Shown here: one piece after another, positions 1,308 through 62,618 of the stretch
Layout of the letters: every line of letters begins with the position of its first letter
How positions within the stretch are numbered: the stretch's first letter is position 1
NCBI GenBank assembly: GCA_000004985.1
Contig: GG738858.1
Strand: one strand, 5' to 3'
DNA length: 64,000 nucleotides
Source: Naegleria gruberi
Taxonomy: Eukaryota
Position numbers and translations under genes: made by a program
The notes under the pieces: generated by a model
What the model was told of the DNA's origin: nothing
Seen by the model: only the letters and a program-made list of their open reading frames with translations
Databases searched by the model: none

Positions 1308-1425
1308 GGCTACGGCCATATCACGATGAATGCACCTCATCCCGTCCGATTTGAGAAGTTAAGCATCGTCGAGCCACATCAGTACTGAGGTTGGAGACAA
1401 CTTGGGAACCTGTGGTGCTGTAGTC
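1308..1425 (+). rRNA. 5S ribosomal RNA (118 nt)
   Basis: GGCTACGGCCATATCACGATGAATGCACCTCATCCCGTCCGATTTGAGAAGTTAAGCATCGTCGAGCC...GGGAACCTGTGGTGCTGTAGTC matches the universal 5S consensus (CCCGTCCGAT, AGTTAAGC, GTACTG, CTGGGAA). A 9-bp helix I forms between the 5' GGCUACGGC and the 3' GCUGUAGUC. It is followed by a T5 run. Confidence 0.85.
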
Positions 1426-1430
1426 TTTTT
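1426..1430 (+). terminator. Pol III oligo-T terminator of 5S copy 1
   Basis: TTTTT immediately 3' of the 5S gene. Confidence 0.4.
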
Positions 1431-1538: not shown

Positions 1539-2675
1539 TTAGAAACACTTTCTATGAACAAAACCTGGACCAGCCTCCTCATATTCCTCTTTCGATATCC
1601 ACATCTGCTGAAAGGTTGCAAGACTCGCGAGGATACTACCTCCAATCCAAACTGAATACTTTCTTTCAGGTGGGGCGACAACCTTTATCTTCATTGAGGC
1701 TGGTGCCAAAGCAGTCAATTCCTTGGTCATTCTTTCAGCAATACCTTCGAACATGGTATTACCACCTGACAAGACAACATTTCCATACAATTCCTTTCTA
1801 ATGTCAATGTCACATTTACCAATTGAGTTGAATGCCATTTCATGAACACCAGCAGCCTCCATTTTTTCAACCAAATTAGGTTGGAATAAAACTTCTGGAC
1901 ATCTGAATCGTTCGTTACCAATTGTTATCACATTACCATCTGGTAATTCGTATAACTTTTCCACGGAGGATGATTCAGCAGCAACTTTCATTTCAGCTTC
2001 GAAATCTAAAGCAATATAACAGAGCTTTTCCTTAATACCTCTGACAACTTCTCTTTCAGCAGTAGTATTGAATGAGTAACCTCTTTCCATCAAAATATTC
2101 ATCAAACAATCAGTCAAGTCACGACCAGCCAAATCCAATCTCAAAATGGCATGTGGCAAGGCATAACCTTCATAAATTGGAACAGTGTGTGAAACACCAT
2201 CACCAGAATCCAAAACTATACCAGTACTTCTACCAGAAGCATACAATGACAAGACAGCTTGAATGGAAACATACATGGCCGGAACTGAGAAGGTTTCAAA
2301 CATGATTTGACTCATCTTTTCTCTATTTGGCTTTGGATTAAAAGGAGCTTCAGTCAACAAGACTGGATGTTCCTCAGGAGCAACACATAATTCATTGTAG
2401 AAGGTGTGATGCCAGATCTTTTCCATATCATCCCAATTAGTAACAATACCGTGCTCAATTGGATACCTTAAAGTCAAGACACCACACTTGTATTGAGCTT
2501 CATCACCAACATAGGCATCCTTACCAAACATTCCAATCATGATTGACTTTTGCTTTGGTCTAGCAACAATTGAGGGAAAGACAGCTCTTGGAGCATCATC
2601 ACCAGCAAAACCAGCTTTACACATACCAGAACCGTTGTCAACAACGAGAGTTTGAACGTCTTCATAGAAAGACAT
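1539..2675 (-). CDS. actin (divergent paralog, 378 aa)
   Basis: First ATG is at 2675-2673 ([37 protein letters not shown]...); the track's upstream 'M' is TTG. High identity by eye to conventional actin along the whole length, including the C-terminal ...[20 protein letters not shown]. No intron. Confidence 0.85.
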
Positions 2676-3966: not shown

Positions 3967-4153
3967 TTTTTTTTAATTTATTTTTACAACAGTTTCAATC
4001 TTTGTAACCAAACTGTGCAAGAAACACTGGAATTTGAGAGTTTTTAGTATTCTTTACAATATAGGTCCAGCCTTGTTTAATATATAACATGAATAAATTT
4101 TGCTTTCGGAGATTTTCAATATTCTTTATATTCATTGTATTAAGGTAATGAAT

Positions 4154-4271
4154 GGCTACGGCCATATCACGATGAAAGCACCTCATCCCGTCCGATTTGA
4201 GAAGTTAAGCATCGTCGAGCCACATCAGTACTGAGGTTGGAGACAACTTGGGAACCTGTGGTGCTGTAGTC
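4154..4271 (+). rRNA. 5S ribosomal RNA, second copy (118 nt; one A/T difference from copy 1)
   Basis: Near-identical to 1308-1425. The same conserved upstream block of about 85 bp (..ttttgctttc.gagattttcaatattctttatatt.attgt.ttaaggtaatgaatGGCTACGG) is present. Followed by a T5 run at 4272-4276. Confidence 0.85.
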
Positions 4272-4452
4272 TTTTTAATTAAGTTTTAAGACACATGAAT
4301 CTTTAAAGTTGTTCATGTAGTCTTTTTGAGGAGAATTTTACTCCCTGTTCAAAGTATTAACATTTGATATTTGGGCATTTAATTAAAGTAGTACCACAAC
4401 ATCTTTCTCGGCCAATTGGCTTTGATCGAGTGAAGTTTCTGTTCTTTTCAGT

Positions 4453-4842
4453 TTAATAGCTGAAAGCAGCCCAAGGGTTGCCTCCTCTCAATCTCAATAC
4501 TAAATGCACAGTTGAGTCCTTTTGAAGATTGTAATCATTAATGGTTCTGCCATCTTCCAATTGTTTTCCTGCATAAATCAATCGTTGTTGATCTGAAGGA
4601 ATACCTTCTTTATCAAATATCTTTTGTTTCATATTCTCAACAGTATCACTCGATTCCATTTCAATTGTAATTGTCTTTCCAGTTAAGGTTTTTACTTGTT
4701 TTCCAGCAAAGATGAGTCTTTGTTGATCTGGTGAAATTCCTTCCTTTTCTTGAACTTTTCTTTTCACATTTTCAATTGAATCATTAGATTCAACTTCCAA
4801 AGTGATTGTTCTACCAATGAGTGTCTTGACGAATAATTGCAT
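4453..4842 (-). CDS. ubiquitin-like protein with internal partial duplication (Ub residues 1-49 fused to Ub residues 5-76, then GG + NPWAAFSY tail), 129 aa
   Basis: ATG at 4842-4840. [29 protein letters not shown] is followed by [53 protein letters not shown]48/K63 equivalents and the GG are retained in the second unit. Confidence 0.7.
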
Positions 4843-4844
4843 TA

Positions 4845-5036
4845 TGTTTGTTGTTTTTTTTTCTTATTGTTTTTCTTTGAATTCAAAGCATTTCTTTGCA
4901 TTTTATTCTTGTAAACCTCCATTCCAATAAGATTTGGTTGAAATAATATCTCAGTAGTTTTGAATCTTTCATTCCCAAGTGAAATTACATTTCCATCTGG
5001 CAATTCTAGACCGTGGGAGGTGAGAAGGATTGACAA
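4845..5036 (-). pseudogene. detached actin C-terminal fragment (..[31 protein letters not shown]..), then non-actin Lys-rich sequence
   Basis: An in-frame stretch matches actin residues ~240-275 and the equivalent region of the 1539-2675 actin. The track 'start' is TTG. Its stop TAA overlaps the ATG of the Ub-like gene (TAATG). No valid splice joins it to the 5497-6225 ORF. Confidence 0.4.
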
Positions 5037-5496
5037 ATATTTTAAAAAAAAATTAAGAAGTCACTCAAAAAACAATTTGTTAAAGTCGAGCCGAAGGTTT
5101 ATTGGACCAAGAGTGAGACAGTGTGTTCAAAGTATCAATTACCACTTGTTCTTCTAGAAACAAGTACTTCTGGGTTCTTGTACATGAACCTTCGCTTTAA
5201 TGTACCAACAATTTCAAGTAAATGGGCAGGCACTTATCTAGATGATGTTTTGGTGAGGTGAATGTAGTAATGGCTGGTGAGGAAGGAAGCAAAGGGAGAA
5301 CTCTCCTCATGGTGGCTTCTCAAGGTAGCATGCTGAAGGTGGGAATACCAACCAATATACCTATTTAGCAGGGTGATGATGAAATCATGATGAGTAATTG
5401 TTGTTTGTTGTTTTTTTTTGTTGAATATTTAACGGTCAGAACAGACAACTTTCAGCGGTTATTGGTTGGCGCGAAATTACCGTGATGTAACATTTT

Positions 5497-6225
5497 TTAG
5501 CTCACCTCCCTCGGTCTAGGCAATTCATATAAACTTTCTTTCGCTGTTTCTGCCAAAAAATTACTGGCAACATAACCAGTTTTTTCCTTCATATCCCTGA
5601 CTAGTTCAGTTTCACCCATCGTGCTGAAATTATATCCTCGTTCCATTAACATTTTCTTCAAATAATCTGTCAGGTCTTTGCCTCCTAATTCCAATCTTTT
5701 GGTGGCATGTGACAGGGCATATCCTTCATAAACAGGTACTGAATTAGTGACGCCATCACCTGATTCCAATACTACACCTGTCATTCTACCATTTGCAAAT
5801 ATTGACATGGCACATTGATTTGCCAAACACAAACCTCTCACCTTAAAACTTTCAAACATGATTTGTGTCATTTTCACTTTCACATCCTTTGAATTTAGTG
5901 GCATTTCCATCAGTAATACTTCATGCTCCTCAGGAGCAACTCTTAACTCATTGTAAAATGTATGATGCCATATCTTTTCCATATGATACCAATCTGAAAT
6001 TAATCCACGATCAATTGGATATTTGTAAACATTAATACCCCTCCTACACAATGCATAATCTCCAACGTAAGTTTCGATAGAGCCCATTGAAAGGAGGAAG
6101 GGTGCTACTTTTCGATGTGAAGTTACTGTGGGAAAGACTGCTCGTGGAGCATAATCACCAGAAAAACCAGCTTTCATTTGAGAGGAACCATTATCAATGA
6201 TGAGTGGTGGATTTTCATCAGTCAT
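5497..6225 (-). CDS. actin-like protein, N-terminal two thirds only (242 aa; clearly less similar to actin than the 1539-2675 paralog), ending ..ESLYELPRPREVS*. Probably truncated or pseudogenised.
   Basis: ATG at 6225. IIDNGSSQMKAGFSGDYAPRAVFPT...[24 protein letters not shown]...SGDGVTNSVPVYEGYALSHA are actin-fold motifs. The ORF terminates where actin continues (ELPDGQVI..). The stop lies in GAG GTG AGC TAA, which is donor-like, but no in-frame acceptor rescues it. Confidence 0.55.
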   Translation of the reverse strand: MTDENPPLIIDNGSSQMKAGFSGDYAPRAVFPTVTSHRKVAPFLLSMGSIETYVGDYALCRRGINVYKYPIDRGLISDWYHMEKIWHHTFYNELRVAPEEHEVLLMEMPLNSKDVKVKMTQIMFESFKVRGLCLANQCAMSIFANGRMTGVVLESGDGVTNSVPVYEGYALSHATKRLELGGKDLTDYLKKMLMERGYNFSTMGETELVRDMKEKTGYVASNFLAETAKESLYELPRPREVS

Positions 6226-6323: not shown

Positions 6324-6394
6324 CTCGAACGCCGGGAATTGAACCCGGGTCGCCAGAGTGACAGTCTGGAATGCTACCACTATACCACGCCCGA
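6324..6394 (-). tRNA. trnD-GUC: tRNA-Asp (anticodon GUC)
   Basis: Reverse complement is TCGGGCG TG GTAT AGTGGTA GCAT T CCAGA CTGTCAC TCTGG CGAC CCGGG TTCAATT CCCGG CGTTCGA G. It gives a cloverleaf with the anticodon loop CUGUCAC and a GGTTCAATTCC T-arm. Confidence 0.8.
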
Positions 6395-6599
6395 TTACAT
6401 ACCTTACGAAATCTCACCTTAATTCACCTTAATAACAAATCTCACTCAATTCTGGCTAATTTGTATTTATTCAAAGGTATTTATGTTTTTAAAAGCTCCA
6501 TGAACTTGGCTGGAAATTCAATTAAATGTGGAAACTTCTCTATTTGTTTCAGATGTGCATTTTCGAAAATGCATCTTTTTTTTCAAATATGAATCACAA

Positions 6600-7808
6600 A
6601 TGGACAAAGTTGATGGAAACACAACCAAAAAAATGGATCCACAACTAACGTTCAAGGCATACAGCAAGATTGAAAATCATCATCAGGAGAGTTTCGTTTC
6701 AAAGTTATTGGAAAAGGAAACTGAAGATTCGGATAAGAAATTGGAATGGGTTTGCTTGGAGAAAGTGCATGGTAGCAATTTCAGCTTTATTGTTGTTCCT
6801 AAAGAAGGATCACAAGATAAAGTTGAAGTATTGAAAGCAAATCGTACCAATGTTCTTACCATATTAAGTAATTTCTTTGTGGAAGCTCAAAAAGAAGTTT
6901 ACGAAAGATATTACAAGAGTTGTGTTAAATTATTCGAAATTATTTCTCAAAATGCAGAAAAATTCAAACGAAAGACTATGGAAACTGAAAGTGAAATTAC
7001 AAAAATTCACATATTTGGTGAATTATTTGGTGGATACTTTCCAAAATTGAAAAATGATCAAGATTCGAATGGTATTCGTAAAGCACACATTCAAAAAGGT
7101 GTTTACTATTGTCCACATTATGATTTTTACGTATTTGATGTGGCAGTGACATTTGGCGACCAAGATACTTGGTTACTTTTCGATGAGGCAGATCCAATTC
7201 TTGAAGAAGCAGGATTTAGAGTTAGAGCTAAACCACTTTTTAGAGGTTCATTGAAGGAATGTTTGGATTTTGATGTGGAAATTAACACGATAATTCCACA
7301 AACTTTTTATTCTGACATTTTGACAGAAAATGATATTTTATTTAAGGAAAAGGAAAATATTTGTGAAGGAGTGGTGATTAAACCTGCTAATGGTACTGTA
7401 TTTGTCGGATCGAGGGCAATTATTAAGAAGAAGAATTCAAAATTTACTGAAGTCAATCCTGCCAAAGATAAATCTAAACGAATGAAGAAACAGGAAAAAT
7501 CTGTGGATCAAGACGAACAAGAAATGATTTCTAATGTGTGGAATGAAATTGAGCGATATTTGAATAATAATCGTCTTGATAATGTCGTTTCCAAAGTTGG
7601 AAATATTACTAGAGAAAATCTTTCACTTGTTTTGAAGAATTTTGTGAACGATGCCATTGAGGATTATGATAAAGATCAACAAGAATTGGGAGAAGAAGGA
7701 GCTACCCTATCATCCCTTCCAGTCAACATTCAAAAATCAATCAAGAAGAAATTGGGATCCACCTGTCAAGCAATTCTTCTAAAATACATGAACGAAAACA
7801 AACAATAA
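6600..7808 (+). CDS. ATP-dependent RNA ligase, Rnl2 (RNA ligase 2) / RNA-editing-ligase family, 402 aa
   Basis: First ATG is at 6600 (MDKVDGN..); the track start is GTG at 6528. Nucleotidyltransferase motif I is the Rnl2-type K-x-H-G-x-N-F (EWVCLEKVHGSNFSF). Further motifs are IFGELFGG and EGVVIKP (motif V). Confidence 0.6.
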   Translation: MDKVDGNTTKKMDPQLTFKAYSKIENHHQESFVSKLLEKETEDSDKKLEWVCLEKVHGSNFSFIVVPKEGSQDKVEVLKANRTNVLTILSNFFVEAQKEVYERYYKSCVKLFEIISQNAEKFKRKTMETESEITKIHIFGELFGGYFPKLKNDQDSNGIRKAHIQKGVYYCPHYDFYVFDVAVTFGDQDTWLLFDEADPILEEAGFRVRAKPLFRGSLKECLDFDVEINTIIPQTFYSDILTENDILFKEKENICEGVVIKPANGTVFVGSRAIIKKKNSKFTEVNPAKDKSKRMKKQEKSVDQDEQEMISNVWNEIERYLNNNRLDNVVSKVGNITRENLSLVLKNFVNDAIEDYDKDQQELGEEGATLSSLPVNIQKSIKKKLGSTCQAILLKYMNENKQ

Positions 7809-8056
7809 ACCCAGATTCTAACACTCTTACCTTAATAAATTCCCATCTTTAAATCAGTTAATGTACTTCACTTGCATGAAGATGATCTTTTTGAGAGAGA
7901 GATTTAAAAAGTTCATCAAAACTCAATCTCTGAAATTTTATTTCATCGTAATGAACCAGAAAAAAATATTATTTTTTTAATCATCAAAAAAAAACCTTAA
8001 TAACAAACTCTGTCGGGAACAGATAGCAATTATCATTATTATTGTTATCAATCAAT

Positions 8057-9397
8057 ATGAAGGAAATAATAACAATTCATGTCGGAGGGGCCGGATGTCA
8101 AATAGGCGATCAGTTGTGGGAGTTATATTGTAAGGAACACGGTATACAACGTGCTGCAGATCATCATACCAATAATACAACCTCCATGATGGAATCATCA
8201 GCTGCCTTTTCATCAGCAGAGAGTTTGTTCTATGAAACGAGTCATACAGAAAAGCAACAATATGTTCCATTGGCTATCTTTTTCGATAACGACTCATCAA
8301 GAGTGCACGAATCGAGGAAGAGATTTGGTAACTTAATGTCCTCAGACAATATGATTGGAGGTAAGGAAGATGCTGCCAATAATTTTGTGAGAGGATGCTA
8401 CACGATTGGAAAGGAGAATATGGATACAGTCTTGGAGAGGATTAGAATATTGAGTGAGAAGTGTGATAGTTTGCAGGGAATTAATGTTGTGAACTCGTTG
8501 GGAGGAGGAACAGGCTCTGGATCAGGAACATTATTGCTTGATAGAATGAGTATAGACTTTGCAAAGGTTCCAATTCATTTGAATACTGTTGCACCATCTC
8601 CAAAATTGTATGATACAGTTGTGGAACCATATAATTTTTGTTGGGCTATGGAACCAATGTGTGAAAAGGGATGCACAGCAACTTTTTATGATAATGAGGC
8701 CTTGTACAATGTTTGTGGAAATCATTTGGGAATTAATGATCCGAAATTAGCTGATATTAATCAAATTATTGCACACCACATTTCCACAAGCTTTTCCAGT
8801 TGTAGAATTGGATCTAATTGTGCAATGCCTGTTTCATTTGGAGATGTAAATCAGACACTTGTTCCAATTCCAAACTTTGAATTACTTACCCCTTCATTTG
8901 TACCATTTGGTTCTGCTCAGAACGAGTTGAGTATGGCAGAGAGGGGCAAACTTGCATTTAGTCCTTCCAACACTTTGATTTCTTACAACATCTTGGAAGG
9001 AAAAATGCTGAGCTCACTGTTAAGTTATAGAGGAAATGTAACTATGGGAGATAACTTTGAATGTTTGAGTGCTGTCAAAAAGATGGAGGGTATTTCTATG
9101 GGCCCTTCTTGGATTCCAAATACTTTCAGTTGCCACATCTCCAAAGCTCCAACAACTCTTTTGGATGATTCAGTTCTTGGGGTTGTGCCAAGTGAAAAGA
9201 TGCTTGCAGTAACAACCAACACAACTGCCATCACCAAAAAATTGAATCAAATTATGGTAAACTTTGATAAAATGTATGAAAAGAGAGCATTTGTTCATTG
9301 GTATGTTGGAGAGGGCATAGAAGATGAATATTTTAGATATGGAAGATCTATACTCGAAGAAAAGGTTGCCACCTATGGAGAGTTGATTTCACAATAA
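8057..9397 (+). CDS. alpha-tubulin-like protein, highly divergent, 446 aa
   Basis: ATG at 8057 (MKEIITIHVGGAGCQIGDQLWELYCKEHGIQ..); the track start is TTG. The tubulin/FtsZ G-box reads GGGTGSGSG. Similarity to canonical tubulin is low after the first ~150 residues. Confidence 0.65.
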   Translation: MKEIITIHVGGAGCQIGDQLWELYCKEHGIQRAADHHTNNTTSMMESSAAFSSAESLFYETSHTEKQQYVPLAIFFDNDSSRVHESRKRFGNLMSSDNMIGGKEDAANNFVRGCYTIGKENMDTVLERIRILSEKCDSLQGINVVNSLGGGTGSGSGTLLLDRMSIDFAKVPIHLNTVAPSPKLYDTVVEPYNFCWAMEPMCEKGCTATFYDNEALYNVCGNHLGINDPKLADINQIIAHHISTSFSSCRIGSNCAMPVSFGDVNQTLVPIPNFELLTPSFVPFGSAQNELSMAERGKLAFSPSNTLISYNILEGKMLSSLLSYRGNVTMGDNFECLSAVKKMEGISMGPSWIPNTFSCHISKAPTTLLDDSVLGVVPSEKMLAVTTNTTAITKKLNQIMVNFDKMYEKRAFVHWYVGEGIEDEYFRYGRSILEEKVATYGELISQ

Positions 9398-19125: not shown

Positions 19126-19196
19126 AGGGAGATAGTTCAGTGGTAGAACATGGGATTGTGGTTCCTAAGATCAGGGTTCGATTCCCTGTCTTCCTA
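19126..19196 (+). tRNA. trnH-GUG: tRNA-His (anticodon GUG)
   Basis: AGGGAGA TA GTTC AGTGGTA GAAC A TGGGA TTGTGGT TCCTA AGAT CAGGG TTCGATT CCCTG TCTTCCT A. It gives a cloverleaf with anticodon GUG. Confidence 0.75.
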
Positions 19197-19279
19197 CACC
19201 TTTTATTTTATTTTTTACCCAATAAGAATATCTGGTATTTTATAATTCTTGTTCGATTTTTTTAATAAGAACATCGTAA

Positions 19280-19351
19280 AGCAAATTGGCGCAGCGGAAG
19301 CGCGATGGGCTCATAACCCATAGGTCCTAGGATCGAAACCTAGATTTGCTA
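19280..19351 (+). tRNA. trnMi-CAU: initiator tRNA-Met (anticodon CAU)
   Basis: AGCAAAT TG GCGC AGCGGAA GCGC G ATGGG CTCATAA CCCAT AGGTC CTAGG ATCGAAA CCTAG ATTTGCT A. Eukaryotic initiator hallmarks are present: A1:U72, three G:C pairs in the anticodon stem, and an A-rich ATCGAAA T-loop. It is followed by a T6 run. Confidence 0.8.
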
Positions 19352-34585: not shown

Positions 34586-37300
34586 TTAAAAGAAGAAGAA
34601 AATGATCATCATTGCAATCACCAAGTATGAGGCAGTGAAGTTGTGAATGGATGAGGTATGACTAAGGACAGGTTCTGGAGGAATTTCAACAGAGGAAACT
34701 TGCAAATTATATCCACTAATTAAGAGAGCAAAGTTTTGAGAACCAACATTCTTCTCCGATGATCTGATATTAATAATAATCGATGAGGATGAATTGGAGG
34801 TGTTTGGAGGAATGTTAATGGTGAGTGATTCGACATTGTTTCTATCATCAATTAGGGAGGAATCTTGAATGTTTCCATAGTTACATTGTTGATTACCGTA
34901 GCAGAGAGTATGAATTGGTGAGGAGGAGGAATCATCCTTGATGGAAACTGAGAGATCTAAATTGTTGATTAGCACTTTGGCTGAGTTGGTGGATGAGCTA
35001 ACAGGTGTACCTTTCAAATCAAACCAGGTGAGTGTAACTTTCAATGGATTGGAGCTTGCCAAATTATTGGTCAACTTCATTGTGATGGTAATGTTTGAGG
35101 CAACATTGATTTTCTGTCTATTGATTGTGAATAGATCTGGATTGGAATCCTTATCTGAAAACTTCATTGTATTGGCAATATTCACTCTACCGTAACCTGT
35201 GTACTTGTTTGGAGTTTTCTCTTTGGATAGATCACGATAATTGTTTTCGTTTGTGAAAACACCATCCAACTTGACTGTACCCATCAACTTCTCTCCAGAG
35301 TGAATAACAAAACCCTTTACAAGCATGCCACTCAATGTTTGATTTGGATTCTTATTAATCAAATCAAGGTTGACCAATCTTTGCTTGCTATTTTGAAGGA
35401 AGTATTCTCTAACCAGAGCAGAAACACCTGAGATAGCTGGACAGGCCATACTAGTTCCTGTCTTCTGAGTTAGCCCAGTTGAATCACAGAATGGAATATA
35501 ACTTCTAGCACTCCAAATTTTCACTCCAGGAGCTACAATGTCAGGCTTAAATCTATTATCAAATGTTGGACCTCTTGCTGAAAAATAGCCCAAATTGTCA
35601 TGATTGTAAAGTGTTGTATTGATATTTGGTTCATATCTGGTGTATTCATCAGATGTGGCATAGGCAGCACCAACTGAGATACAATTCTTGGCAGTAGATG
35701 GAGCTAGTTCAAAAATTGTTACAATTTACCAAGTGAACAATATACTTACAAATAACAGACTTTTCCTGTCCATAGTAACCACTATTACCAGCAGCAAAGA
35801 CAACTAACATTTCATCATTGGCATTGGTGAATTCATCAATTTGTGCAGAGAGTGTTTCATAAGTGTTACCAAGTTCACAACATCTTAAACCATATTGTTG
35901 AAGACAATACTCATCCTTCACTGGTTTGGAAAGATTGGATTTGGCTTCATAGCAATCACAATCAAATTGGCAATCTAAATTATTGGTATTTCCCCAACTG
36001 TTGCTGGAAATTCTTGCACCACTGGCATAAGCCCTAATCAAGTAAGATGTCATGTTGGAAACTGAGAAGAAAAGTGTAATACCAGAATCAATCATGTGAA
36101 TTTTAGCATCTTTGGCAATACCCATATCATTATCAATTCCTGAAGTTGAACTTGGTTGACCAGCAACTATTATTAAGGTAAAATAACAAAGAATGAAAAC
36201 AACAACTTACTAATTCCAGAACAGTGAGTACCATGACCATTGGCATCGTAAAAATCTCCTGTTGTACCTCTCTCGTAAAGTACAACCTTTCTATTTTTGG
36301 TATTCAAAGTAGAATAATCTTCATTTGGAGAAGAGAAGAAACAATGACTGTAATCAAGACCTGAATCAACAATATTCACAATCTCACCCTTTCCAGTTAC
36401 ACCATTATCCCAAGCAAATCTCGAAACATTAACCTTACGATTGTATTGAACAACATTATTGGAGCCGTACAATAATAATGATTGAGAAAATTCTCTTTCA
36501 ACATAGTCTACATCTTCATTATCTAAAATGTTGCTCATTAAGAAATCTGACATGTGACTCATCAAGGCACTCCTTTTACCATTGTTATTCCACAAGCTTG
36601 CATCTCCATCAACCAAGGAAATTGAAAACATTCTTCCTCTTTCTTCAATCAAAATTGAAGAACTTGCAAGAATTTCATTAATACTCTCAGAACTTCTTCT
36701 CACAGAACTTTCAATCAATTGAGTAGCAAACTCATGATTGAATTTGGTATTCATCTTGGAAAGGAAGAGTGGCAATTTTTCTTCAAATTCACTATTCATT
36801 ACAACTCTGAGTTTGGAAAATCTCAAACTGTCCATAGAAAATTGAGGAAACAAAATTCTCTTCTCATTGCTAACTCTTTCAATTCTGTAAATGTATTGTC
36901 TGTAGGAGGATTCGCTTTTAATTTCATCAATTCTTTGTAATGAGAGTCTAGTTCTAAACACTCTGTTATCTGTTCCACTGACAGTTTCTAATCTTTCGGT
37001 ACGAATGTTGCTGCTACTTGGACCGAAAACAATTCTATTTAATTGGTCTAAATGAAAATCGGAAAGGATGACATTATCATGAATTTTAATGTCTACAAGA
37101 AGTTTTGCATTATTCGAAAGTGTTCTTGCAGCTGATGATGATGGTTTATCCAACAAATTTAAACCATCCAATGTATGAGGAAATCTGCTATGAGCAACAA
37201 CTGAGAATGCCAAACCGAGGAGGAATAGGCATACCACCAATATTGTTCGCTGCATTATTTTTTTGTAAAGTATCGAATAATTGCATAGTAGACATGTCAT
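34586..37300 (-). CDS. subtilisin-like serine protease (peptidase S8) with C-terminal extension of about 330 aa and hydrophobic tail (874 aa), 3 exons: 37300-36211, 36166-35750, 35703-34586
   Basis: Catalytic triad D (VNIVDSGLD), H (HGTHCSGI|IAG across intron 1) and S (GTSMACP). SNSWG and AAGNSG motifs are present. Intron 1 is 36167-36210 (GTAAGT..AATAG, phase 1) and intron 2 is 35704-35749 (GTAAGT..AACTAG, phase 1). The signal-peptide-like MQRTILVVCLFLLGLAFS follows a possible upstream ATG. Confidence 0.75.
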
Positions 37301-58330: not shown

Positions 58331-59871
58331 AATTGAAATATATCAATTTTGACATTTCTTAATGACATGGATAGTTCACTAAGGTAGTAACTTTGTCATA
58401 TGACAACTATCTAAGATGATATTGAAATCATTCCAAAACTGATAATATGAGAGTATATGATGATTATAACACGATATCAATGAATTGGTATTGATTTTAA
58501 ACATTGTTGACATGTAGGAATGTTACCTTTGATCAATTGGACCAGTAACTTGACAGATATCCCATTTATATAGATATTGATTTCTATCACTCAGAAACGT
58601 TACCAATATCATTTATAAGAGTAGTGGTATGATATTCTATCTTTTTGCACATCTTGATATTGACTTGTCATATTGTCATGAGTAGTCACCGACATGGCTA
58701 AATGACATGAATATTGAATGATGTCCAAATGATTTGAAATTGATAGTAACCTCATTATATGATGTTATTAACATATTGTATCAATTTGGTAATGAATCTC
58801 ATTGTCCTTAGGGTACTTTCCTATTGAGGTACCTTAATTGACTATCTCAATATTTAATATGAGATATGATATTTATTTCAATTCCACCATGTTGTATATG
58901 TAATTTGAAGCATTTTGATATAAGTTTTGATATATAATTATGATTTATTAGACATTATATATAGCATGTCTTAGTTTTACAAATTTGACTTTGAGATTCC
59001 CTAATTGACCATATATATATGTCCAATTGGTGAAACTAATATCAATCGACTAGATTTTCAATTGTGAACACAGTGGTATCAATAGTTATATGATTCATGA
59101 TAGTTTAAAATTGACTTGGTCATCTAAGGATAGGTCATTAAGGTTTGAATGAATTGATATGAAAATCAATACCAATTATTGAAATACCATTATTAATTGA
59201 TCTATATATGATATTGTAATTGAAAGATTTTAAAATTAATATGATTTCACTATCTTGACATTTATTATTCTCATGATTACACTCCTGACAGGTTGAATGA
59301 TTTCAAATTGTCATGAAACTGATGCAGTAGTGTTTATTCACCATTAGTAAGGTAATGTATCAATTATATGATGATCTGTATAGTAGATGTCATTGTCACA
59401 TCCCTGTATGTATCAAGTGGATCAGCCATGTACCATGTATGATATGGATGAATGTCAAAATGATATTAATGTATTTAATTATCATGTATATATGTATTGG
59501 AAGTGAATTGAAGTGGTATAGATTTCTATCTTCAATGTTAGTATAGGTCAGTTGACAAGTTGAATAGTATATTTCTTGAAATGATACCAAAGTATTTGAA
59601 ATTGATATATTTTGTTATTGACATGATTTATAAGATGATATATTGATTTGAAATGATTTTGAAATGTTTTCATTGATATTCTAATTGTCTAATCTATTAT
59701 ATGAAATAAACTTATATAAGTCATTATAATGATGTAATATTATGTTATAATATGATTATATATTCAATTTGGAGTATATTGATATATAATATATTGATTT
59801 ATAATGAGTATTTATTGAGATAATTAATTAAGATGAATAAAAGTCAAAATGTTGGGTCTGACCTTAGTCGT

Positions 59872-60175
59872 GGGTTTGGGTTTGGGTTGGGTTTGGGTTT
59901 GGGTTTGGGTTTGGGTTTGGGTTTGGGTTTGGGTTTGGGTTTGGGTTTGGGTTTGGGTTTGGGTTTGGGTTTGGGTTTGGGTTTGGGTTTGGGTTTGGGT
60001 TTGGGTTTGGGTTTGGGTTTGGGTTTGGGTTTGGGTTTGGGTTTGGGTTTGGGTTTGGGTTTGGGTTTGGGTTTGGGTTTGGGTTTGGGTTTGGGTTTGG
60101 GTTTGGGTTTGGGTTTGGGTTTGGGGTTGGGTTTGGGTTTGGGTTTGGGTTTGGGTTTGGGTTTGGGTTTGGGTT
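59872..60175 (+). repeat. (GGGTTT)n telomere-type tract (about 50 units), truncated by assembly gap
   Basis: Perfect gggttt hexamers with 2 variants. It runs into N at 60176. Confidence 0.85.
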
Positions 60176-61171
60176 NNNNNNNNNNNNNNNNNNNNNNNNN
60201 NNNNNNNNNNNNNNNNNNNNNNNNNNNNNNNNNNNNNNNNNNNNNNNNNNNNNNNNNNNNNNNNNNNNNNNNNNNNNNNNNNNNNNNNNNNNNNNNNNNN
60301 NNNNNNNNNNNNNNNNNNNNNNNNNNNNNNNNNNNNNNNNNNNNNNNNNNNNNNNNNNNNNNNNNNNNNNNNNNNNNNNNNNNNNNNNNNNNNNNNNNNN
60401 NNNNNNNNNNNNNNNNNNNNNNNNNNNNNNNNNNNNNNNNNNNNNNNNNNNNNNNNNNNNNNNNNNNNNNNNNNNNNNNNNNNNNNNNNNNNNNNNNNNN
60501 NNNNNNNNNNNNNNNNNNNNNNNNNNNNNNNNNNNNNNNNNNNNNNNNNNNNNNNNNNNNNNNNNNNNNNNNNNNNNNNNNNNNNNNNNNNNNNNNNNNN
60601 NNNNNNNNNNNNNNNNNNNNNNNNNNNNNNNNNNNNNNNNNNNNNNNNNNNNNNNNNNNNNNNNNNNNNNNNNNNNNNNNNNNNNNNNNNNNNNNNNNNN
60701 NNNNNNNNNNNNNNNNNNNNNNNNNNNNNNNNNNNNNNNNNNNNNNNNNNNNNNNNNNNNNNNNNNNNNNNNNNNNNNNNNNNNNNNNNNNNNNNNNNNN
60801 NNNNNNNNNNNNNNNNNNNNNNNNNNNNNNNNNNNNNNNNNNNNNNNNNNNNNNNNNNNNNNNNNNNNNNNNNNNNNNNNNNNNNNNNNNNNNNNNNNNN
60901 NNNNNNNNNNNNNNNNNNNNNNNNNNNNNNNNNNNNNNNNNNNNNNNNNNNNNNNNNNNNNNNNNNNNNNNNNNNNNNNNNNNNNNNNNNNNNNNNNNNN
61001 NNNNNNNNNNNNNNNNNNNNNNNNNNNNNNNNNNNNNNNNNNNNNNNNNNNNNNNNNNNNNNNNNNNNNNNNNNNNNNNNNNNNNNNNNNNNNNNNNNNN
61101 NNNNNNNNNNNNNNNNNNNNNNNNNNNNNNNNNNNNNNNNNNNNNNNNNNNNNNNNNNNNNNNNNNNNNNN
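60176..61171. other. assembly gap (996 N)
   Basis: Run of n. Confidence 0.95.
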
Positions 61172-61690
61172 TATGGAAACACTATAACATTCAATCAAAC
61201 TCATTAATATAGTAGCAAATACCAATGATAATCATATATAATTGAAATAATCATGTTTGGAACCATATTCAGACTTGCGGAAGTCAACTTGTGTGAAATT
61301 GACAATATTTGTAATAGAAGGATGAATATCTTACATGACTTAATCCCACTGATTGATACATGTCTAATTATCATATTTTATGATATGTAATTGGAATAAT
61401 TGAAATTTATCATATATATAGGGAGATAACCAATTAGGATGAAAGTTGGGGAAATTACGCTCACTATTTACCAGGTAAACATTTTCAATAGGGACCTATA
61501 TATTTTATTTGATAATATCGTATATCTATGTATTTTATCGACATATAATTGGTTTCATGATTTTATTTTCTATATTTCCAATTTGGGAAATGTTGCAATG
61601 TCTAATCTCAATTGAAATATGGCCATAATACCAATTATTGATTATACATCATGAAACTGATATTATAGACTCTAATTGATGTTAATAGGG
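61172..61690. repeat. TAS repeat, copy 2 (partial, begins at gap)
   Basis: About 95% identical to 63265-63783. It ends with ..gactctaattgatgttaata followed by gggtttgggggttttggggtttgggtttgggtta. Confidence 0.7.
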
Positions 61691-61804
61691 TTTGGGGGTT
61701 TTGGGGTTTGGGTTTGGGTTAGACGAAAACCCATCGACGACTAACGAACGGCCAATATTGAGTATCTGAATTTCATATATGTCATTCAAATATAAATAAA
61801 AAGC

Positions 61805-62235
61805 TTTGGGTTTGTGGGGGGGTTGGGTTTGGGTTTGGGTTTGGGTTTGGGTTTGGGTTTGGGTTTGGGTTTGGGTTTGGGTTTGGGTTTGGGTTTGGGT
61901 TTGGGTTTGGGTTTGGGTTTGGGTTTGGGTTTGGGTTTGGGTTTGGGTTTGGGTTTGGGTTTGGGTTTGGGTTTGGGTTTGGGTTTGGGTTTGGGTTTGG
62001 GTTTGGGTTTGGGTTTGGGTTTGGGTTTGGGTTTGGGTTTGGGTTTGGGTTTGGGTTTGGGTTTGGGTTTGGGTTTGGGTTGGGTTTGGGTTTGGGTTTG
62101 GGTTTGGGTTTGGGTTTGGGTTTGGGTTTGGGTTTGGGTTTGGGTTTGGGTTTGGGTTTGGGTTTGGGTTTGGGTTTGGGTTTGGGTTTGGGTTTGGGTT
62201 TGGGTTTGGGTTTTGGGTTTGGGTCTGGGTTTGGA
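61805..62235 (+). repeat. (GGGTTT)n telomere-type tract (about 70 units), truncated by assembly gap
   Basis: Perfect hexamers after a degenerate start (gggtttgtgggggggttggg). Confidence 0.85.
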
Positions 62236-62285
62236 NNNNNNNNNNNNNNNNNNNNNNNNNNNNNNNNNNNNNNNNNNNNNNNNNN
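62236..62285. other. assembly gap (50 N)
   Basis: Run of n. Confidence 0.95.
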
Positions 62286-62618
62286 ATGATTGGAATAAAT
62301 TTCACTGAGATGGAGTGTTCACTAGGATATATATAATTTTGATATTGAACATTTACTGATTAATTTTATGAAAATAGTTTGAAATGTTTCTTAACTATTG
62401 TAGATGTATATTAATTGATATATAGACTATGTGGTATCAATTCTAGACTTATTATATGTAAAATGAGTGAGTTGGAGTATAATCTATGATATTATGTAAA
62501 ATGTCTATAGTAAATTGATAGAGTTGACATCTCGACATCTACTGAACCAATATTCATGAAATTGATACCACATACTAATTAGAGTGTCTACATACCATGA
62601 TATCAATTTCAGTGAAAT

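Follow-up and report, generated by a model that had tools for sequence, protein, structure and literature searches.

An actin-like gene copy of Naegleria gruberi interrupted by a 512-bp terminal-inverted-repeat element and truncated at a di-ubiquitin junction

The actin-like copy and its relatives

The window analysed here, a 64-kb stretch of Naegleria gruberi DNA with a GC content of 32.8%, carries a divergent actin-like coding sequence on its minus strand, in the neighbourhood of a conventional actin gene (1539-2675, minus strand). The ATG of the divergent copy is at position 6225, and the open reading frame (ORF) that starts there (5497-6225, minus strand) codes for 242 amino acids and was correctly recognised in the initial annotation as the N-terminal part of an actin-like protein. 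It ends with ...YELPRPREVS* (agg gag gtg agc taa), the TAA being at 5497-5499, and it is an exact match, inclusive of the RPREVS tail, to the annotated N. gruberi "predicted protein" P0001. The actin-like part of this ORF, codons 1-233 at 5527-6225, is delimited by the ORF list and by tblastn; it lies upstream of the insertion described below and shows 88% identity to the protein P0002 and 53% identity to the neighbouring actin. In a tblastn search with the neighbouring actin as the query, residues 10-245 match positions 6204-5518 (53% identity) and residues 243-269 match positions 5006-4926 (74% identity), and beyond these two matches no further actin-like sequence was found in the 64 kb. The second match falls within a fragment of 31 amino acids (codons 234-264; 4914-5006, minus strand), which continues the same coding sequence in one uninterrupted frame once positions 5007-5526 are removed, and of which 30 residues (97%) are identical to residues 234-264 of P0002. 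The displaced C-terminal fragment had originally been placed at 4845-5036; of this, 4914-5006 is indeed actin sequence, whereas positions 5007-5036 are TIR (terminal inverted repeat) sequence of the inserted element and 4843-4913 is the 5' flank of a di-ubiquitin unit.

The nearest relative of the broken copy is P0002 (NAEGRDRAFT_29917), an intact protein of 368 amino acids. In an identity matrix the broken copy is 90% identical to P0002, 73% identical to P0028 and 55-60% identical to the conventional Naegleria actins, which places it in a divergent actin-like subfamily seen in N. gruberi only. The neighbouring gene, in contrast, is a conventional actin, with 84-91% identity to the conventional Naegleria actins and 91% to the main N. 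gruberi actin, and the suggestion that the broken copy is the less actin-like of the two was therefore well founded. Over its 264 actin codons the broken copy has no frameshift and no stop other than that supplied by the insertion. The lineage-specific amino-acid changes in the broken copy and in P0002 number 9 vs 5, 6 vs 7 and 5 vs 6 with three different outgroups, a comparison of low power that is based on at most 14 informative sites. A gene for tRNA-Asp(GTC), identified by ARAGORN and Rfam, is present at 6324-6394 (minus strand), about 100 bp upstream of the actin-like ATG. P0001 and P0199, a ubiquitin-like protein discussed below, are annotated on one N. gruberi scaffold of 782,252 bp. 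The gene content of the window is eukaryotic, inclusive of Wntless-like, RCC1 and tubulin genes, teneurin-type EGF and RGS sequences, and kinases with DUF4116/Sel1.

The 512-bp element within the coding sequence

The actin-like coding sequence is interrupted by a non-coding, MITE-like element of 512 bp (5007-5518), which is bounded by TIRs at 5007-5024 and 5501-5518. The TIRs have the sequence TAGACCG[A/T]GGGAGGTGAG; that at 5007-5024 reads TAGACCGTGGGAGGTGAG and its complement, with one mismatch, is found at 5501-5518, so that 17 of the 18 nucleotides match (or 18 of 19, if the complementary C/G pair at 5006/5519 is also counted). Even when up to 3 mismatches are allowed, the TIR motif has just these two matches in the window (chance expectation 0.01). 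Directly abutting the TIRs are two identical copies of an 8-bp sequence, at 5519-5526 and at 4999-5006, forming a perfect direct repeat that reads GGCAATTC on the plus strand and GAATTGCC on the strand of the gene, where the copy at 5519-5526 corresponds to codons E234 and L235 and two nucleotides of P236. Eight bp is the maximal length of this direct repeat, and a duplication of 6-7 bp can also be read, since the bases at 5006 (C) and 5519 (G) are themselves complementary. When the window was scanned for perfect 8-bp direct repeats around inverted termini matching at 16 or more of 18 positions, one such configuration was found in the real 64-kb sequence and none in 200 windows simulated with a second-order Markov model. 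Further, the in silico deletion of positions 5007-5526 (i.e. the element and one copy of the duplicate) yields a single continuous in-frame ORF that is colinear with P0002. The true interruption is thus 520 bp long (the 512-bp element and the 8-bp duplicate) and not the 460 bp of the spacer that had been proposed. The spacer had also been described as richer in GC than its surroundings; this holds for the element (38.9% vs 32.8% for the window), but the excess is modest and the value is close to that of coding DNA.

The element has no ORF of more than 65 amino acids, and the longest ORF lying wholly inside it is of 46 amino acids. It has no Pfam match at E<=1 and no match to an RNA family in Rfam, and its masked six-frame translation has no match at E<=10 among 5.8 billion proteins, where also no gene model reads through a copy of it. 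Based on its TIRs, the perfect duplication, the exact restoration of the frame and the lack of coding capacity, the element is best regarded as a non-autonomous TIR (class II) transposon. Its presumed repetitiveness and mobility are read from this anatomy, from which it would appear that the element was moved by transposase-mediated integration and, because the duplication is perfect and the TIRs differ by a single mismatch, that the insertion is recent. Neither blastn nor the TIR search with up to 3 mismatches revealed a second copy of the element in the 64-kb window, and a scan for the TIR in metagenome and viral contigs gave only single-ended matches of 18-24 nt in DNA of 43-69% GC, which were judged to be due to chance. 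In the literature, descriptions of MITEs or hAT elements in Naegleria, inclusive of the present element, were not found.

In several respects the element resembles the MITEs and other non-autonomous TIR transposons that are found in coding sequences, which are likewise small and non-coding, have short TIRs and a perfect duplication, and whose exact removal repairs the gene. However, in contrast to the MITE families, just one copy of the element described here was seen in the 64 kb. The 8-bp duplication and the TIRs of 18-19 nt starting with TAGA... are similar to those of the hAT superfamily, whose members have the terminal motif YARNG and a target preference of nTnnnnAn. However, the termini of the present element (TAGAC) fit YARNG at 4 of the 5 positions, the fifth base being C and not G, position 2 of the target GAATTGCC/GGCAATTC is not T and its position 7 is not A, and the element is not linked to a transposase. 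Duplications of 8 bp are also characteristic of other superfamilies, viz. P, Merlin, Mutator-like and Zisupton elements, to one of which the element may belong instead. Due to the mismatch of the fifth terminal base and of the target with the usual hAT motifs, the element is not assigned here to any superfamily. A likeness to introners is also seen, as a TIR element with a target-site duplication lies within a coding exon and has a GTGAG-like motif near one of its ends; however, it differs from introners in that canonical splice sites do not permit its precise removal and in that it is not seen as a family in many genes.

The truncation and the di-ubiquitin, U2 and 5S sequences

The second lesion is found at the other end of the displaced fragment. 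Relative to P0002, the actin homology stops after codon 264 (...GMEV) at position 4914, and residues 265-368 of P0002 (about 104 residues) have no counterpart in the window in tblastn searches with the neighbouring actin, P0002, the C-terminus of P0002 and P0028, where only the neighbouring gene's own C-terminus was matched. Based on homology to two intact members of the di-ubiquitin family, which are carried by two independent contigs (L017 and L018), the sequence at 4843-4913 (minus strand) comprises the breakpoint and about 70 bp of the native 5' flank of a di-ubiquitin unit, and in the actin frame this flank yields a non-actin tail of 23 codons. The DNA homology to the intact loci starts at 4912 (ACAAG...), is of 90-92% identity and includes the sequence TAATG, in which the stop of the fragment overlaps the ATG of the ubiquitin-like gene. 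This overlap was accurately reported in the initial annotation; as TAATG belongs to the di-ubiquitin unit, the overlap is incidental. That annotation did not see the transposon, nor that the abutment of the ubiquitin-like gene constitutes a second, independent breakpoint.

The ubiquitin-like ORF itself (4453-4842, minus strand; identified by Pfam) corresponds exactly to the annotated protein P0199 (129 amino acids) and represents a damaged di-ubiquitin copy that has lost its native stop. Over the aligned columns it is 97-98% identical to P0204, P0198 and P0207, which belong to a multi-copy family of N. gruberi di-ubiquitins of 152 amino acids. Between positions 4695 and 4696 it has an in-frame deletion of 93 bp (31 codons) across the junction of the units, and its homology to di-ubiquitin ends at 4481, exactly at the final Gly codon, after which an extra tail, NPWAAFSY*, is supplied by antisense U2 sequence. 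The match to U2 snRNA (Rfam RF00004) extends over 4399-4521 on the plus strand with a score of 74.2 bits (gathering score 46), and it is convincing just for the 5' part of about 82-88 nt, from 4399 to about 4487, which is antisense to the di-ubiquitin fragment and abuts or overlaps it. In the alignment, model positions of about 113-185, i.e. the Sm site and the 3' stem-loops, are collapsed. A 5S rRNA gene (4154-4272, plus strand; Rfam, 106 bits) is convergent with the di-ubiquitin fragment, and a convergent 5S gene is similarly present downstream of the di-ubiquitin of L017. Mentions of a linkage between 5S and ubiquitin genes were not found in the literature.

A unit of 188 bp that contains this 5S gene (4090-4277) is 97% identical to the sequence at 1244-1431, 3' of the intact actin. 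As this unit is all that the two actin loci share, their origin by a recent segmental duplication was considered and rejected. Likewise rejected was a larger carrier of the Pack-MULE or Helitron kind around the patchwork of gene pieces, where no convincing long inverted repeats other than those of the element itself were seen. The junctions between the actin, di-ubiquitin and U2 sequences would have arisen by non-homologous rearrangement or by partial duplication.

Status of the locus and alternative explanations

In principle, the interruption could be a long spliceosomal intron, possibly of transposon origin and introner-like, with a gene that is functional after splicing, and an unusual long intron or mis-spliced gene was one of the two possibilities raised in the initial annotation. 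The sequence GAG|GTGAGC in which the upstream ORF ends, and which is present as had been noted, has the look of a good donor, and DNA transposons are known to have given rise to introns in some protists, as is reportedly shown by Huff and co-workers (2016) and by Gozashti and co-workers (2022). However, this donor falls within the inverted repeat and is of phase 0, whereas both of the nearby acceptors require phase 1, so that no in-frame join results. An exhaustive enumeration of GT/GC-AG pairs revealed none that removes the element and the duplicate precisely. One imprecise in-frame pair, consisting of the donor AAGAAA|GTTTAT at 5534 and the acceptor TCTAG| at 5006, does exist; however, every in-frame splice option removes or changes residues that are conserved in actin. 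Were the splice perfect, the protein would still lack the last approximately 104 residues of actin, and introners in Naegleria were not found described in the literature. An intron is thus very improbable, and the transposon anatomy accounts for the interruption. The other possibility that had been raised, viz. a gene conversion of the downstream fragment by the neighbouring actin (1539-2675), drew on the observation that this fragment is more similar to the neighbour (71-74% protein identity) than is the N-terminal part (53%). However, this local peak is also seen in the intact P0002 (67% vs 53%), and other windows of 27 residues in the gene reach 70-85% protein identity to the neighbour. In a codon-aligned comparison the fragment is 71% identical to the neighbour at the nucleotide level and 54% identical at third positions, values that are also found over the remainder of the gene. 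No conversion tract, for which a nucleotide identity to 1856-1949 of 95% or more would have been required, was found. The 30 of 31 residues that the fragment shares with P0002 also link it to its own subfamily. The additional similarity to the neighbour simply reflects the presence in this region of a conserved actin segment (ELPDG..GNERF..LFQP), and a conversion from the paralogue is hardly credible.

An assembly artefact, with an erroneous joining of unrelated reads in a draft scaffold, also merits consideration, as the window is a draft sequence with N gaps at 60176-61171 and 62236-62285, and as the locus juxtaposes pieces of repeated genes (di-ubiquitin, U2 and 5S) that are prone to mis-assembly. 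However, more than 50 kb separate the gaps from the locus, a mis-join would not yield matching inverted termini together with a perfect 8-bp duplication, nor a frame that is restored on their removal, and the order of a di-ubiquitin followed by a convergent 5S gene recurs in the independent contig L017; an artefact of this kind is highly unlikely. A somewhat less remote, though still unlikely, alternative is that the 242-amino-acid protein, or a form of 287 amino acids that would have existed prior to the insertion, is produced and serves a function in its own right, and that the locus may not be a mere pseudogene. Consistent with this, the frame is open over the 264 codons of actin, amino-acid change is not in excess when the copy is compared with the intact paralogue, the 242-amino-acid product is annotated as a protein (P0001), and an A-rich region similar to those of other genes is present upstream of the ORF. 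However, the relative-rate test from which the lack of excess change is read has little power with its 14 or fewer informative sites, and the exact 242-amino-acid product has no record in the transcript or contig collections that were searched. Further, the approximately 104 C-terminal residues that are lacking constitute the rest of actin subdomains 3 and 1. The homology covers residues 1-264 of an actin fold that in its full form has about 375 residues and four subdomains, and based on the established structure of actin, it is unlikely that a protein without these residues will fold as a stable actin.

Based upon these considerations, the locus is very probably an inactivated copy of an actin-like gene that is divergent and restricted to N. 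gruberi, and this copy was disabled by two independent and ordinary events, viz. the insertion of a transposon and the loss of the C-terminus at the di-ubiquitin junction. In one of these events, a 512-bp non-autonomous TIR transposon would have inserted by a cut-and-paste process into codons 234-236 (E-L-P), duplicating the 8 bp of its target. The sequence of the element would then have added RPREVS and a stop, giving rise to the annotated ORF of 242 amino acids, and codons 234-264 would have been shifted 520 bp downstream. In the other event, the gene, without everything past codon 264, would have become fused to a piece of a dispersed repeat unit of di-ubiquitin, a piece which spans from 70 bp upstream of the ATG to the last Gly codon, and this damaged fragment would in turn have been joined to the antisense 5' half of a U2 snRNA beside the 5S rRNA gene. 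The anatomy of the locus, its breakpoints, the identity of each piece and the exact in-frame restoration of the actin-like sequence are directly observed, and from these we infer that the locus makes no functional actin. The view that this is a broken actin-family locus, a decayed pseudogene, is thus supported by the insertion-borne stop and the 3' truncation. Compared with the 10% divergence from P0002, both lesions are probably recent, as the actin codons contain neither stops nor frameshifts, the changes in the two lineages are balanced (in a test of low power), the duplication is perfect and the TIRs are nearly so.

The broken copy has the features of a duplicated pseudogene, viz. a close intact paralogue (P0002), a premature stop, here borne by the insertion, and a truncated 3' end, and in these respects, as also in its occurrence in a genome that has many actin genes, it is similar to the duplicated, non-processed pseudogenes of multigene families, such as the actin pseudogenes of Dictyostelium (the actinome is listed in PMC2441452). 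However, it differs from a typical duplicated pseudogene in that its coding part is otherwise intact and in that it is truncated at a junction with a fragment of another repeated gene; the lack of frameshifts and stops in the coding part again suggests that its inactivation was recent.

Nothing at this locus challenges current understanding. It indicates, however, that the annotated actin-like protein of 242 amino acids is the product of a transposon-interrupted, truncated pseudogene, and that the ubiquitin-like protein of 129 amino acids is the product of a damaged di-ubiquitin fragment, and these two predicted proteins should not be counted among the functional members of the actin and ubiquitin repertoires. 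The locus also provides one clean and exactly bounded example of a small TIR element in Naegleria, a genus for whose genomes a low repeat content has been reported (PMC9928731, Table 1), and it can serve as a seed for a catalogue of DNA transposons. The perfect duplication and the nearly perfect TIRs allow the speculation that the 512-bp element may belong to an uncatalogued TIR family that was recently, or is still, active in N. gruberi, and separately, the sharp actin/di-ubiquitin/U2 junctions beside 5S genes may be the trace of a 5S-linked unit of di-ubiquitin that is dispersing and reshuffles fragments of genes; this reading is offered tentatively and is rather doubtful. If such an active family exists, strains would differ in whether they have the insertion, and the insertion would indicate that a usable endogenous pair of transposase and TIRs is present, which would matter for a genus that lacks genetic tools.

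Divergent and conventional actin relatives

The actin-like pseudogene in the window (codons 1-264, 6225 down to 4914 on the minus strand) is interrupted by a 512-bp non-coding transposon-like element with terminal inverted repeats (TIR). The third member of its divergent actin subfamily, P0028 (NAEGRDRAFT_44350), is without 26 residues (SNF...) at residues ~222-224, a gap that coincides precisely with the site of the interruption in the window copy. One possibility is that the P0028 model was spliced around another lesion, with use of a cryptic GTAAT donor that lies within codons V-A-S-N. The neighbouring actin at 1539-2675 (-), regarded as intact in the initial annotation, is itself slightly aberrant among conventional actins, sharing 91% identity with the main N. 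gruberi actin and having one extra residue inserted relative to NFIGMEAAG as well as several Cys/Phe substitutions. Its true ATG is at 2675, and the 399-aa ORF as listed begins at an upstream TTG.

The di-ubiquitin copy and its leader

The di-ubiquitin genes of N. gruberi, which encode proteins of 152-153 aa, number at least seven and are dispersed over different scaffolds (viz. P0198, P0204, P0207, P0214, P0221, P0223 and P0232), and their ubiquitin units are unusually divergent in comparison to canonical ubiquitin. The copy in the window, at 4453-4842 (-), has a 93-bp in-frame deletion and is missing its native stop. A 21-nt A-rich motif, AAGAAAAAAAAACAACAAACA, is found just upstream of the ATG of this copy (4845-4865) and also within the element (5402-5422), where it is again followed by an ATG, with 20 of the 21 nucleotides identical between the two sites. 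Genes in the window are often preceded by A-rich leaders, and on that ground this resemblance was judged to be probably compositional.

Other protein genes and assembly gaps

The pseudogene is adjoined by an Rnl2-type RNA ligase gene (6528-7808, +; RNA_ligase and T4_Rnl2_C domains), and near to it lies a divergent tubulin gene (8042-9397, +) whose C-terminal domain scores weakly. A subtilase (Peptidase_S8) is divided over two ORFs, 34586-35593 (-) and 36173-37300 (-), which are ~580 bp apart and between which profile positions 64-188 are absent; the split presumably reflects introns or another disruption, and a TIR plus 8-bp repeat signature was not found at this locus. At 59824-61225 and 61682-62336, where as many as four frames have a listed ORF, these ORFs are artefacts of assembly gaps, as the N runs at 60176-61171 and 62236-62285 translate without stops.

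Small RNA genes

Two 5S rRNA genes, at 1308-1426 (+) and 4154-4272 (+), are identical at 118 of 119 positions and share a common unit of 188 bp (the gene and ~64 bp upstream), one being located 3' of each actin locus in the window. Since the independent contig L017, which carries an intact di-ubiquitin locus, also has a 5S gene (1292-1403) convergent with its di-ubiquitin gene, a recurrent linkage of these genes is suggested. A match to U2 snRNA at 4399-4521 (+; 74 bits) is antisense to the ubiquitin-like ORF and overlaps its 3' end; good alignment is confined to the 5' ~82-88 nt, and the match has the appearance of an incomplete, truncated copy of U2. With a tRNA-Asp(GTC) gene (6324-6394, -) ~100 bp upstream of the actin pseudogene, and a tRNA-His/tRNA-Met pair elsewhere in the window (19126-19197 and 19280-19351, +), in addition to U2 and 5S, the stretch is rich in small-RNA genes.
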